Part shown: positions 12,455 to 20,586 of the stretch, piece after piece
Layout: every line of letters begins with the position of its first letter
Position numbering within the stretch: the stretch's first letter is position 1
Origin: a virus
DNA: 25,396 nucleotides
Strand: one strand, 5' to 3'
IMG/VR virus record: IMGVR_UViG_3300042275_000783
Span: 1 to 25,396 of that record
Notes under the pieces: model-generated
The model's database searches: none
Told to the model about the DNA's origin: nothing
What the model saw: the letters and a program-made list of their open reading frames with translations, nothing else
Translations under genes and position numbers: made by a program

Positions 12455-12850
12455 TTAATGTTTCTCAATGTTCATTAATGTTTTAACGTATTCTTTTGCC
12501 CCCTCTTCTCGAGGTCCAACGCTCTTACCAACTTCATTTTTACATTCAAACAGGGAATACACGAGTATTCTGTTTGACACTCTGGGGTCTGCCGAGAGAA
12601 GCTTGTACTCAAGCTCCTCCGACACGTCGAGAGCTTTCTCGGAGTCCACAAACTTCGCTATTATTACGATATGGGGGTTGATACCATCCTCCGGTGTTCC
12701 AGTAGTTATTTTTATCTCTTTAACTTCCTCCCGCTCCAACCATTGTGGAAGAGTTTCCCGAAGGTATCTTATTATCTCTCCCTTATAGGGTAAAGGAGTT
12801 TCAATGAGTGACTTAAAGTCTACTTTAAGCTTTTCTTTCTCCACCTTCAT
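12455..12850 (-). CDS. Hypothetical protein, weak nucleotidyltransferase-like alpha/beta pattern
   Basis: SD before ATG 12850. VKEIKITTGTPEDGINPHIVII resembles the MNT strand order but lacks the GS and DxD motifs. Confidence 0.45.
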   Translation of the reverse strand: MKVEKEKLKVDFKSLIETPLPYKGEIIRYLRETLPQWLEREEVKEIKITTGTPEDGINPHIVIIAKFVDSEKALDVSEELEYKLLSADPRVSNRILVYSLFECKNEVGKSVGPREEGAKEYVKTLMNIEKH

Positions 12851-13050
12851 CCTCCATCCCTCCATATTTTTTCCAATGCATTGTATGCACTTTCAAGCAT
12901 GTTGACGATCTCTTCAGTGTAATCCGCTATTGTCTCCCTGTCTACATTGGTATACCTTAGACCTGCAACAACCTTGTCAAGTCTCGCTATAGAACTTTCT
13001 ATCACTGACCTTGCGTAATCTATCTCCAATTCTCTATCTTTTTCCTCCAT
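12847..13050 (-). CDS. Small helical hypothetical protein
   Basis: SD GGAGGG before ATG 13050; amphipathic helices. Confidence 0.5.
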   Translation of the reverse strand: MEEKDRELEIDYARSVIESSIARLDKVVAGLRYTNVDRETIADYTEEIVNMLESAYNALEKIWRDGG

Positions 13051-13109
13051 CTTACACCCTCCATCTACCACCTTCCTCACCTCCTTAAGGTCTTGATATC
13101 CTCCAGTTT

Positions 13110-13544
13110 TCACCCCTCTATCGAGCCATTAAACACAATATACCCTTTGAACTTAAACCTGCTTTTCTTAACTACTGAACCATCACTCTCAATATGCTCT
13201 ACCACTTCCCTCTCTGTATGGCTGAAAACTGGCGTTGCGTAAAAGTACGGCCAAATCTCTGGAAAAATCCACATCAGCGCTGGAGAACCGACTGGCAAAT
13301 GTACATATGCATGAACTTTTTTCTGTTTGGCAAAATCAATAAGCTTTTCTACGATATTATATGCAAGCATTCCTAATTCGTCGATAGTATCTGGGCACTG
13401 TCTAACCTGACTAACAATATCTTCTGGCAAAACATCTTCTGCATTGTAAAACTCTTCAACTCCAAGCCTCTTTTTCGCTTCCTCCATTTGCTCATTCGTC
13501 AATCTATGGGACGTCAAGTTTACGAATACCTTCCTCATCTCCAT
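13110..13544 (-). CDS. csx20: Csx20-like stand-alone CARF-type ring nuclease homologue (candidate anti-type III CRISPR)
   Basis: N-terminal VFVNLTSHRLTNEQMEEAKKRLGVEEFY and C-terminal PVFSHTEREVVEHIESDGSVVKKSRFKFKGY match my recollection of the Csx20/Csx15/Csx16 pattern (SHxLTxEQ...TxRxxxE...F). Recognised by eye only. Confidence 0.65.
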   Translation of the reverse strand: MEMRKVFVNLTSHRLTNEQMEEAKKRLGVEEFYNAEDVLPEDIVSQVRQCPDTIDELGMLAYNIVEKLIDFAKQKKVHAYVHLPVGSPALMWIFPEIWPYFYATPVFSHTEREVVEHIESDGSVVKKSRFKFKGYIVFNGSIEG

Positions 13545-13568
13545 TCACCTCCATAGTTTTGTCAATAG

Positions 13569-13601
13569 ATATTATGTTTCTAATGTTTATAAACTTTTCG
13601 G
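13569..13601 (-). promoter_or_regulatory. Early promoter P1 (BRE CCGAAAAG + TATA TTTATAAA), 33-bp repeat copy A
   Basis: Minus strand ccgaaaagtttataaacattagaaacataatat, 31/33 identical to 14268-14300. Confidence 0.8.
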
Positions 13602-14240: not shown

Positions 14241-14267
14241 CTCCAACACCTCCTTCTTCTTTAATAT

Positions 14268-14300
14268 ATATTATGTTCCTAATGTTTATAAGCTTTTCGG
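14268..14300 (-). promoter_or_regulatory. Early promoter P2 (BRE CCGAAAAG + TATA CTTATAAA), 33-bp repeat copy B
   Basis: Minus strand ccgaaaagcttataaacattaggaacataatat. Confidence 0.8.
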
Positions 14301-14327
14301 TCCACCGGGATATTACTTTTTCTTTTT

Positions 14328-14361
<34 letters not shown>

Positions 14362-14548
14362 TTAGGTTATCTTTAGGACCAAAGTACTTGAGTGTAGTTT
14401 TGTGAGGAAATTCTCTGAAGATTTTTACAAAGTTTGGAGATACATTTGAGTGAGTCATTAATCCAAATCTTAATCGAGGAAATTCAAAAAATACTCCCTT
14501 TAAGATTTCGAGACTTCCTGGTCGATCTACTACAAAAAAAGGAATCAT
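14362..14548 (-). pseudogene. 5' fragment of a tRNA-guanine-transglycosylase (TGT/DpdA)-like gene truncated at the IS end
   Basis: MIPFFVVDRPGSLEILKG...FGLMTHSNVSPNF resembles the N-terminus of a TGT-like family I recall beside C5 methyltransferases. The ORF runs into the IS hairpin and stops at 14327. Confidence 0.4.
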
Positions 14549-15465: not shown

Positions 15466-15512
15466 CTTCCCCAGACCTCCAATTTTTTTACCTGTCGTCA
15501 TTGGGACAGGCG

Positions 15513-15542
15513 ACCTCAATTCTTTCAAAGTCTTATTGGAAC
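15513..15542 (-). CRISPR. Solitary CRISPR repeat unit (not an array), Thermococcales type, 3' end altered
   Basis: GTTCCAATAAGACTTTGAAAGAATTGAGGT versus the P. furiosus repeat GTTCCAATAAGACTAAAATAGAATTGAAAG: nt 1-14 and 20-27 identical. Intergenic; no second repeat seen. Confidence 0.8.
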
Positions 15543-15562
15543 ATTGAAAAAAATGAAAAGGA

Positions 15563-16242: not shown

Positions 16243-16373
16243 TTCAATACTATATACACCTTTGGACTATATAAACTTTTCGGTGTTTTTAAAGCAAAGT
16301 TTTAGAGGTATTTAAATAACAATAGTGGAAAAGTTTGAGGTTGTTCTACAAATTATCAAGTCTTCTTAATTAC
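16243..16373 (-). repeat. 131-bp direct repeat copy 1, containing early promoter P3
   Basis: Near-identical to 19336-19463 (one short indel region and two substitutions); contains ccgaaaagtttatatag on the minus strand. Confidence 0.95.
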
Positions 16374-16384
16374 AAAGAAATCAA

Positions 16385-17713
16385 TCAGCTCAGTATTTTT
16401 ACTTGGCGTTTCCAAAGTTTTTTCACCTCCCATCCTTCAAAAGTTGCAATTATTGCTAAGCCAAGTGCAGCCGCGAGAAGTGGGGGGACAGCGTTTCCTA
16501 TCTGCCGGTACTGTGCGGTTCTAGGGCCTTTAAAGATAAACCAGTCCGGAAAACTCTGGAGCCTTGCTGCCTCCCGGGGTGTTAGAGTTCTTGGTTTAAC
16601 TGGATGTATGTACCGGTACCCGTCCTTCTGGAGATGGGCTGTTATTGTCCATGATGGGCGGTTCCATATGAGTTTTTTGAATTTATCCCTGAAGATGTCG
16701 TCACGATACCCATAAAGAGCTTTTATGTGCTGGGGAAGATCTTTCCAGGAATCGCCTTCTTTCATGTGTTCAAATGTCAATTTATCCCGTTCGGTGTGAG
16801 AACGGGAAATATGATTATGAACCATTCCGTCCCAGAAGGGGGTTTTTTTCCGGGCCCATTCTTGATATCTGGAAAAGGGATGAATAACATGGAACATGGG
16901 ATAATCTTCTATGCCAGCCCTATTTGCGACTACCGGTTCGGGAAGATCCCCTATTGCCTGTCCAACAGTTACATATGGATATTTGGGAAGAAGTCCTTTG
17001 AAAAGGTAATCAACCAGATTTTTCTTGGATTGCTGGGAATCTTTATGTGTGGGGAATGGCCATCGGAATTCCTCAACAAGTGATTCTTCATCCCGGTGTA
17101 TTCCAACAAAGAAAATACGTCTTCTTGTCTGGGGTACTCCAAAATCGGCAGCATTGAGTATCCCTGGATTGTTTCCTGTTTCCCATCCCGGAATTATGTA
17201 TCCAATCCTTCTGAAATCATCAACTATTTCTCTTACCGTCTCCCCATCCCTGTGACTCATCATTCCGGGTACATTTTCCATTATGACAATCTTGGGCTGG
17301 AAATAGTCGACCATACGGATGAATTCTCGATAGAGCACATTTCGAGGATCATCAATAAATCGGGGATGATGGTTTTTCACATCTTTCTTTTTTCCGTTTC
17401 TTGCAAGATTTGCTATTTTCACACGACCGGCCACGGAAAAGCCTTGGCAGGGAGGCCCTCCCACCATCACATCAATATCCCCTTTTTGAACTCCTGACAC
17501 ATTAGAAATAACTTCAGGGGGCAGCTTTCTAAGGTCTTCTTTCAGGCCAATGGTATCAAATCCCATTGCTTCCCTGAAGTTGTAGTTGTACGTTTTTATT
17601 CCGTGAGGGTCAATGTCAACGGCTGCTTTGGGCACTAATCCTGCCAGCACCATGCCAAGAGAGAATCCCCCAGGTGCACCGAATAGATCCATGAAAGTGT
17701 ATTTTGATTTCAT
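16385..17713 (-). CDS. dcm: C5-cytosine DNA methyltransferase
   Basis: Motif I variant DLFGAPGG, IV GGPPCQGFS, VI ENVPG, VIII QTRRRIFF, IX TPREAARLQSFPD, X QIGNAVPP. Confidence 0.95.
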   Translation of the reverse strand: MKSKYTFMDLFGAPGGFSLGMVLAGLVPKAAVDIDPHGIKTYNYNFREAMGFDTIGLKEDLRKLPPEVISNVSGVQKGDIDVMVGGPPCQGFSVAGRVKIANLARNGKKKDVKNHHPRFIDDPRNVLYREFIRMVDYFQPKIVIMENVPGMMSHRDGETVREIVDDFRRIGYIIPGWETGNNPGILNAADFGVPQTRRRIFFVGIHRDEESLVEEFRWPFPTHKDSQQSKKNLVDYLFKGLLPKYPYVTVGQAIGDLPEPVVANRAGIEDYPMFHVIHPFSRYQEWARKKTPFWDGMVHNHISRSHTERDKLTFEHMKEGDSWKDLPQHIKALYGYRDDIFRDKFKKLIWNRPSWTITAHLQKDGYRYIHPVKPRTLTPREAARLQSFPDWFIFKGPRTAQYRQIGNAVPPLLAAALGLAIIATFEGWEVKKLWKRQVKILS

Positions 17714-17758
17714 TGCATACTCCCTCCGTCCAGATTCTTGCAGGGGCTTTTTATCAGG

Positions 17759-17884
17759 TCAAGAGAGAACCTCATCCTGCATCACCTCCAACACCCAAAT
17801 ATCCATCGCCAATCTCAAAAGTACCCAATAAACCGTAAAACCAAAGACACAAAGACGGAAAACACCCTCAACGTCTTCGTTCAC
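17759..17884 (-). CDS. 41-aa hydrophobic peptide (GTG start)
   Basis: Start overlaps the stop of the upstream 27-aa ORF; one TM-like stretch. Confidence 0.3.
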   Translation of the reverse strand: MNEDVEGVFRLCVFGFTVYWVLLRLAMDIWVLEVMQDEVLS

Positions 17885-19335: not shown

Positions 19336-19463
19336 TTCAATACTATATACACCTTTGGACTATATAAACTTTTTGCTTTTAAAGCAAAGTTTTAGAGGTA
19401 TTTAAATAACAATAGTGGAAAAGTTCGAGGTTATTCTACAAATTATCAAGTCTTCTTAATTAC
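19336..19463 (-). repeat. 128-bp direct repeat copy 2, containing early promoter P4
   Basis: Matches 16243-16373; contains gcaaaaagtttatatag on the minus strand. Confidence 0.95.
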
Positions 19464-19713: not shown

Positions 19714-20517
19714 CTAATCAACAAGCTCAAAATATCCCTTCAAAATGTTGCTAATGTGGTGTTTGTATAATAATCTATCATTGACTTTCCTAACCTGCAG
19801 CCGGTGATTTGTGTTAATAACTTCATATTTTTCGAGAATGGCTTTAAATTCATCATCTGTGAATACGTAAAAGGTTATCTCTTGTAATTCATCAAGCTTA
19901 ACTGCTTTCATCTCATTCTCTGTTAGGTATTCTTCAACAAATTTTGGCAATTGCTTTTCAAGTTTAGTTGTTTTAATAAGCTGCTCAACTTTCAGTAATC
20001 TTTCTTCTTTTTCTGCAAGGTACTTTTCAAACTCTTTTAATTGTCTTTCCCTTTCTGTCAATTCTTTTTCTTTTTGTTCAAGCTCTTTTGCTTTAAAGTA
20101 GTTGGTCCTTTCAAGCTTTAATGCATGTTCATATGTTATTTTTATTTTCTTTGCTTCTTTTGCTTCTTTTAATAAAGTGTTGATCATTAAAGAATAGTTT
20201 TTCAGCTGCTGCTTATATGCTTTAATTTCTCTTTTTAATGCCCTATTGGTAAGTTCCATATTTTTGTACTGTGTGGAATACAAATTAAGTTCTTTTTTGT
20301 ACTCCTCGATGAGTAATTTATAATTAACCTGTCCTTCTTCAAAATATGCATTCAAAATTTCTGTTACAAGTTGGCTTACTGATTTGTTTTCTTTTTTTGC
20401 TTCTTCTTCTAAAAGTTTTTTGATCTTTTTTGGTATTCTAACTGTCGTTATGATATACTGCTCACTAACCGAAAGATTTATCTCCTTCTTTCTTCTATCC
20501 CTATTTAGTGGAGACAT
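19714..20517 (-). CDS. Ribbon-helix-helix DNA-binding protein with long coiled coil and C-terminal domain
   Basis: ITTVRIPKKIKKLLEEEAKKENKSVSQLVTEILNAYF is a CopG-type RHH; an E/K-rich heptad region follows. Confidence 0.75.
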   Translation of the reverse strand: MSPLNRDRRKKEINLSVSEQYIITTVRIPKKIKKLLEEEAKKENKSVSQLVTEILNAYFEEGQVNYKLLIEEYKKELNLYSTQYKNMELTNRALKREIKAYKQQLKNYSLMINTLLKEAKEAKKIKITYEHALKLERTNYFKAKELEQKEKELTERERQLKEFEKYLAEKEERLLKVEQLIKTTKLEKQLPKFVEEYLTENEMKAVKLDELQEITFYVFTDDEFKAILEKYEVINTNHRLQVRKVNDRLLYKHHISNILKGYFELVD

Positions 20518-20556: not shown

Positions 20557-20586
20557 GTTATTAAGGTTTATAAGCCTTGTTATTAA
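20557..20586 (-). promoter_or_regulatory. Promoter of the RHH gene: TATA (CTTATAAA) flanked by two TTAATAAC boxes
   Basis: Plus strand GTTATTAA at 20557-20564 and 20579-20586 bracket tttataag. Confidence 0.55.

Follow-up and report, generated by a model that had tools for sequence, protein, structure and literature searches.

A gene on a tailed-virus contig (csx20-like gene, 13110..13544, minus strand) encodes a protein that, judged from its sequence, is almost certainly a member of the Csx20/MJ1673 family, and that probably serves as a viral ring nuclease for cyclic tetra-adenylate (cA4), pre-empting the activation of Csx1/Csm6 as a type III anti-CRISPR. The contig is a linear IMG/VR record of 25,396 nt, called the window here at its full length. 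The course of events that we infer is as follows. After infection of a Thermococci cell, a strong BRE/TATA promoter would drive a three-gene operon in which this gene stands first, and its product, presumably a dimer, would bind and cleave the cA4 that the host's Cmr/Csm Cas10 produces. The loss of cA4 would keep the cA4-activated Csx1/Csm6 RNases off, and the Csx20-like protein would thereby act against type III immunity.

The record, whose completeness is put at about 33% by CheckV, carries portal, Mu-F-like, HK97-type capsid, tail-tube and tape-measure genes on the plus strand of its left half, while genes from about 12.4 kb on run leftward. The csx20-like gene is the first of a three-gene leftward block, the end of which converges with the structural module. 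An earlier note on this DNA had described a 144-aa ORF there, and it is present with the motifs quoted: NLTSHRLTNEQ at residues 9-19, PVFSHTEREVVE at residues 105-116 and DGSVVKKSRFKF at residues 121-132. The tailed-virus structural genes on the same contig bear out the statement that the gene is virus-encoded. That no cas genes lie nearby also agrees with our searches, in which neither Cas10 nor Csx1 was matched anywhere in the record; the neighbours of the gene are viral or fall in no known family. Two in-frame ATGs lie downstream of the Shine-Dalgarno sequence; the first would give a protein of 144 aa and the second, Met3 at 13538, one of 142 aa. Met3 is probably the true start, since it is favoured both by the Shine-Dalgarno spacing and by the start of a 96%-identical homolog, P0001.

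Assignment to the family was supported by several models. The NCBIfam Csx20 model (NF040559) matched the window protein with E 1.5e-11 and 44.7 bits over model positions 2-121 of 124, and three PADLOC Csx20 models matched with E 4.3e-11, 1.2e-10 and 8.7e-10. The NCBIfam score lies below the equivalog cutoff of 70 bits, as does that of the cas-linked relative P0153 (42.6 bits) and those of ten further family members; the equivalog model is a narrow one. When 1.84 billion representatives were searched exhaustively, 154 relatives turned up, almost all of them 120-160 aa long and aligned end to end, and 89 of 100 aligned relatives matched the Csx20 model. Homologs had already been annotated with the Pfam family PF27247, 'MJ1673'. 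A search of Pfam models that do not include PF27247 gave no family for the protein (best DUF7227, E 0.22); only weak unrelated matches were seen in PHROGs, and nothing meaningful among PDB sequences (best an aldose reductase, E 0.12).

Residues H13 (99), Q19 (100), R112 (98), G122 (92), K126 (95) and F130 (98) are conserved among the 100 aligned relatives, as are P84, G86, S87 and P88 in 92-95 and the S108-H109 pair, singled out in the earlier note and present in the window protein, in 84-85 of them. All near-invariant family residues are retained in the window protein, a single 144-aa domain. Its 35%-identical relative P0153 (E 2e-21) is encoded downstream of Cas10/Csm1, Csm2, RAMP genes and a gene for the Card1 nuclease, which is a canonical type III-A locus with cA4 signalling. 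A dN/dS of 0.15 between the window gene and its nearest relative suggests purifying selection, though only 13 differences enter into it. The Csx20-like identity proposed in the earlier note is thus upheld by the model matches, the 154 relatives and the conserved residues, and so is the proposed distinction from AcrIII-1, with no match to DUF1874 (PF08960) in a Pfam search up to E 1. The Cas_csx3 profile (PF09620) did not match the protein either.

The predicted fold is CARF/SAVED-like. An AlphaFold2 model, with the 100-sequence alignment as input, reached a pLDDT of 95.2 and a pTM of 0.86, and consists of strands alternating with helices, with a long beta-hairpin at the end. In this model two conserved motifs lie in loops, NxTxH...EQ after the first strand (residues 4-9) and HLPxGSPA after strand 77-83. 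Foldseek returned no match in the PDB below E 1e-3. With an exhaustive structural aligner the top 20 structures were mostly SAVED and CARF sensors of cyclic oligonucleotides, with Z of 5.0-7.2, which is middling on the scale of that aligner, so that the argument rests on the enrichment of SAVED/CARF folds and not on single matches. The SAVED neighbours included Cap5, Cap14, TIR-SAVED, Cap4 and CalpL, and the CARF neighbours Csm6 and Cad1. A viral SAVED ring nuclease (9r8s) scored Z 6.5, and Crn1 Sso2081 (7ygh), lower in the list, Z 4.7; the only Crn2-containing structure listed, 8y7g, was aligned over residues 2-191 of a 543-residue Csx1-Crn2 fusion. This enrichment agrees with the published Csx20 model, reported by Hoikkala et al. 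(PMC12409355) to resemble Crn1 and to have a CARF-like fold. The earlier note had named a non-CARF fold as what would speak against its proposal, and the aligner, where Foldseek found nothing, points to the CARF/SAVED group instead.

Upstream of the gene, a promoter, P1, was predicted from sequence at 13586..13601 (minus strand), with a BRE CCGAAAAG at 13601-13594 and a TATA box TTTATAAA at 13593-13586, and a Shine-Dalgarno sequence GGAGGTGA lies at 13545..13552 (minus strand) ahead of the start codons. The motif CCGAAAAGYTTATAA has three minus-strand matches in the window (13587-13601, 14286-14300 and 16269-16283) where 0.27 were expected, and none of 100 shuffles reached three; its recurrence is not due to chance. 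The second exact copy, P2 (14286..14300, minus strand), heads the gene block immediately upstream. Two looser copies near 19362 and 20557 share the same architecture of a TATA box, about 35-40 nt and then GGAGGT, and an alignment of P1 with the four other copies places GGAGGT in the others at an equal distance below the TATA box. The element thus recurs ahead of several leftward gene blocks, and the description of the csx20-like gene as the first behind its own archaeal-type promoter holds, with BRE, TATA box and Shine-Dalgarno sequence in place; the word 'early' in the earlier note goes further than this and is conjectural. No operator-like inverted repeat was seen in these promoters beyond the TATA palindrome. 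The spacing between TATA box and transcription start is usually 24-26 nt, which would place the start of the P1 transcript near 13563.

Separately, a stretch at 14265-14371 (plus strand) contains a core of about 48 nt (14313-14360) that matches most Thermococci genomes with 88-98% identity, typically in two places each. The stretch overlaps a sub-threshold match to the Rfam HgcC family RNA (29.3 bits, gathering 50), and we take it for a small-RNA element of host type, whole or fragmentary, lying among the leftward genes of the virus.

The second gene of the operon (12847..13113, minus strand) encodes 88 aa if translation begins at a GTG that overlaps the csx20 stop, and 67 aa if it begins at the ATG at 13050, which is preceded by GGAGGGTG. 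The third (12455..12865, minus strand) encodes 136 aa. Family profile searches found no match for either. The third gene has DNA of 97-99% identity in two Thermococci genomes and of about 74% identity in four more, and it could be a decoy or an antitoxin-like anti-defence gene. Its Thermococci copies (L019:1499-2041 and L020:2570-3112) are the first gene of a small cassette, which lies about 1.3 kb from an OLD-family gene with AAA_15 and TOPRIM domains in those genomes.

No Aca-type HTH or RHH regulator lies beside the csx20-like gene, and the two downstream genes matched no HTH or RHH family. About 6 kb away, a 267-aa protein (19714-20517, minus strand) has an N-terminal ribbon-helix-helix domain (RHH_1, E 4e-5), and one of the looser BRE/TATA copies (20557-20578) precedes its gene. 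We regard it as a candidate regulator because RHH Aca14 proteins regulate bacterial csx20 operons; it also has a very weak XerC-like match (E 0.0065).

Several matches to cellular genomes identify Thermococci, here archaea of the deep sea, as the host of the virus. When 133 Thermococci species genomes were searched at the DNA level, the assembly G120 proved to contain 99%-identical DNA of the window's methylase and third operon gene, and near-identical pieces of the window (97-99%) occur in the assemblies G120 and G115. The methylase is a C5 cytosine methyltransferase (16368-17763, minus strand), the DNA of which is 99% identical to G120:C17 and 85% identical to G054, which indicates that the virus has recently exchanged DNA with Thermococci genomes or with elements integrated in them. 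The virus is also targeted by a Thermococci CRISPR array. The DNA search gave a 36-nt match to window positions 13555-13590 in another assembly, G106, where a 37-nt spacer (L017:1122-1158, corresponding to G106:C53) sits in an array with at least 24 repeats and matches 35 of 37 nt of the window at 13554-13590. A further 36-nt match, in G039, was rejected as a spacer, lying outside any repeat array.

The protospacer (13554..13590, 37 bp) takes in the 3' half of the TATA box and, beyond it, the csx20-like leader, and on the plus strand it is preceded by a CCA PAM (13551-13553) and followed by AA. These features fit the spacers of Pyrococcus furiosus, for which a length of 37 bp, a 5'-CCN PAM and a 3'-NW motif have been described (PMC5737086). 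If transcription begins near 13563, the P1 transcript would leave most of the protospacer upstream of it, and this would fit targeting of DNA by type I systems or of read-through transcripts.

The pathway that the viral protein would disarm is present in candidate hosts. Of the 133 Thermococci genomes, 20 had Cmr2 and 20 had the HEPN protein Csx1 above the cutoffs (about 15% each), and both are found in G106, which holds the spacer, and in G120, which holds the near-identical window DNA. P. furiosus Cmr makes mainly cA4 and about one third cA3, and cA4 activates Csx1 (PMC7192623). Crn3/Csx3 was detected in 11 of 133 genomes, always within a few kb of Cmr2 and including G106 (C36:355-5089). Some Thermococci thus own a stand-alone ring nuclease, though P. 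furiosus is reported to be without a CARF-type homolog (PMC7192623). DUF1874 was absent from the 133 genomes.

The earlier note had further proposed that the virus captured a host off-switch, and this part was not supported. Cas-linked Csx20 was found in none of the 133 Thermococci genomes, the ring nuclease of these hosts is Crn3/Csx3, and the near relatives of the window gene are carried by phages and mobile elements. The Csx20 model matched only one of the 133 genomes, on a 3.7-kb metagenome-assembled contig of an uncultured Thermococci (L005) that resembles a mobile element, being rich in small ORFs and without cas genes, and the homolog there is 45% identical to the window protein. A profile search with a 10-sequence alignment confirmed one relative in genome contigs, the one on L005, and none in viral contigs. 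The nearest relatives with usable context all lie among phage or mobile-element genes, and none of them has cas neighbours. P0154 (57% identical, the closest relative that is not near-identical) is encoded by the last gene of an 89.8-kb contig that consists of small ORFs and also encodes an RNA ligase (L028, ena:ERZ27262635:k141_254433); P0004 lies on a 27-kb contig with Gp80 and large genes of structural size; P0005 adjoins YopX; P0007 lies between an SbcC-like ATPase and RecT; P0172 is on a 243-kb contig with an SNF2 helicase and a DNA ligase; and P0002 and P0003 lie in runs of small ORFs. A single lineage comprising the window virus and the P0154 contig was considered and rejected, the RNA ligases being barely related (E 0.003), and that contig is probably a different large virus or mobile element sharing only the csx20 gene.

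In a quick tree of 143 columns, which is poorly resolved, the window protein groups with P0001-P0004 (SH-aLRT 91), and every member of this sub-clade with readable context lies in surroundings like those of a mobile element. Because the tree supports little beyond this small clade, it names no donor lineage. The Atlas clusters of the MJ1673 family are mostly labelled viral. The difference between the viral Csx20 family and the host Crn3 family argues for exchange among mobile elements and not for theft from the current host, and the overall picture is of a Csx20-family gene that circulates among mobile elements, not of a recent capture from the present host. Full-length relatives were also seen in Rhodothermus phage RM378 (NC_004735.1:313-705) and in a Caudoviricetes metagenome genome (MW202458.1:28285-28662), with 27-34% identity and E 8e-6 and 7e-7, respectively; both are annotated as hypothetical proteins only.

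Another link between the window and the Thermococci contig L005 is a module of a solitary CRISPR repeat and a hairpin. In the window this leader module (15466..15562, minus strand) heads a neighbouring gene; it matches Rfam CRISPR-DR6 with 30.5 bits, under the gathering threshold, and its repeat (15516-15550) matches Thermococci repeat arrays. The module recurs twice in L005 (2440-2570 and 3520-3640); at one of the two copies the order is the repeat-like element, the hairpin, a Shine-Dalgarno sequence and the ATG of the csx20 homolog. As it heads a csx20 homolog in L005 and another gene in the window, the module behaves like a 5' leader that can be placed before one gene or another. A bolder proposal, which we consider unlikely, is that csx20 of Thermococci mobile elements belongs to a portable anti-defence toolkit and that the host Cas6 processes, stabilises or times mRNAs with the solitary-repeat leader. 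If true, this would tie ring-nuclease output to the activity of the very CRISPR machinery being disarmed.

We know of no solved Csx20 structure and of no mapped Csx20 catalytic residues; with the latter unmapped, the conserved residues of the window protein cannot be linked to catalysis, and their conservation is no proof of it. The protein might accordingly bind cA4 (or cA3) without cleavage and sequester the signal stoichiometrically, a role for which a strong promoter and the first position in an operon would be suitable and which has a precedent in some Csx15 members that sequester cA4 without cleaving it (10.64898/2026.01.21.700848). We hold sequestration to be rather unlikely, however, as every near-invariant family residue is kept, and the one Csx20 assayed is a multiple-turnover cA4 nuclease, active at a 100-fold substrate excess (PMC12409355).

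A ring nuclease could also have as its main role the moderation of host signalling and not its defeat. In a chronic or temperate infection it would then serve virus and host alike by sparing the carrier cell the dormancy or death that Csx1 would bring on. The near-identical window pieces in G120 and G115 hint at such a persistent association or at integration, and the XerC-like match of the RHH protein at 19714-20517, weak as it is, would point the same way. A clear integrase was not found in the record, however, and the matching host pieces are single genes and no provirus, which makes this outcome decidedly unlikely; its biochemistry would be that of the anti-CRISPR reading and only the fate of the cell would differ.

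It is highly improbable that the protein is directed not at type III cA4 but at cA3 or CBASS-like cyclic oligonucleotides, or that it is a CARF-like sensor for a viral process. Csx20 does degrade cA3 at higher enzyme concentration (PMC12409355), about one third of the P. furiosus Cmr product is cA3 (PMC7192623), and the top fold matches are CBASS SAVED domains. On the other hand, those family members that lie in cas loci are found only with cA4 effectors (PMC12409355), as P0153 is with Card1, and the window protein has no effector domain. That the gene is decaying, or a passenger without function, is scarcely credible, as nothing specific speaks for it beyond the fragmentary contig, while the frame is intact, the family-invariant residues are kept, the dN/dS is 0.15 and a dedicated promoter and Shine-Dalgarno sequence are in place. 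Cleavage of cA4 as a viral counter to type III immunity thus remains the preferred reading.

Head-tailed viruses of the Thermococcales were recognised only in 2026 (PMC12934983), and the text of that paper does not contain the terms anti-CRISPR, ring nuclease, Csx, CARF or type III; only two papers name Thermococcales and ring nucleases together, each in passing. If active, the window protein would give these viruses their first described candidate anti-CRISPR, and would be a thermostable viral ring nuclease for Pyrococcus/Thermococcus, where the biochemistry and genetics of type III-B are well developed. More broadly, Csx20-family genes are widespread on viruses and mobile elements.

As for novelty, which is smaller than the earlier note implies, the concept is known and the member is new. 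Csx20 is a confirmed cA4-specific ring nuclease (Hoikkala et al., PMC12409355); there, metal-independent cleavage of cA4 to linear products is described for one cellular Csx20 only, and csx20 is counted in 4 of 28,114 phage genomes, where the preprint had five. For the csx20-aca14 operon of Pasteurella multocida, co-option of csx20 by phages as a counter-defence has been proposed (10.64898/2026.07.27.740549). The window protein shares with Csx20 (NF040559, PF27247) the family, the size, the predicted CARF-like fold and the motifs NxTxHxLTxEQ, HLPxGSPA, FSH[ST]xR and DGSVxKxSxFKF. It differs in that the known Csx20 is cas-linked, whereas the window copy is carried by a tailed archaeal virus without cas genes nearby and its activity is predicted. 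The bacterial phage homologs are likewise Csx20-family genes on mobile elements with a proposed role in type III counter-defence, but the window copy belongs to a hyperthermophilic archaeal virus, has an archaeal BRE/TATA promoter and is without an adjacent RHH/Aca14-like gene.

AcrIII-1/Crn2 (DUF1874, PF08960) has the same proposed role, the viral destruction of cA4 that disarms Csx1/Csm6-type effectors, in an unrelated sequence family. Crn3/Csx3 of Thermococci type III-B loci shares the expected substrate cA4 and the hosts with the window protein, but it belongs to a different family and fold and is cellular, while the window copy is viral; Crn3 is Mn-dependent and holds cA4 sandwiched between dimers, according to PMC12409355. 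The structural neighbours 9r8s and 7ygh also degrade cyclic oligoadenylates and have CARF/SAVED-type folds, yet they show no detectable sequence similarity to the window protein and differ in size and architecture; with the SAVED protein 9r8s, for example, viral ring nucleases other than AcrIII-1 are already known. Against this background, what is new here is the host lineage, the mismatch between a viral Csx20 and a host Crn3, the spacer aimed at the csx20 leader, and the link to a solitary-repeat leader.
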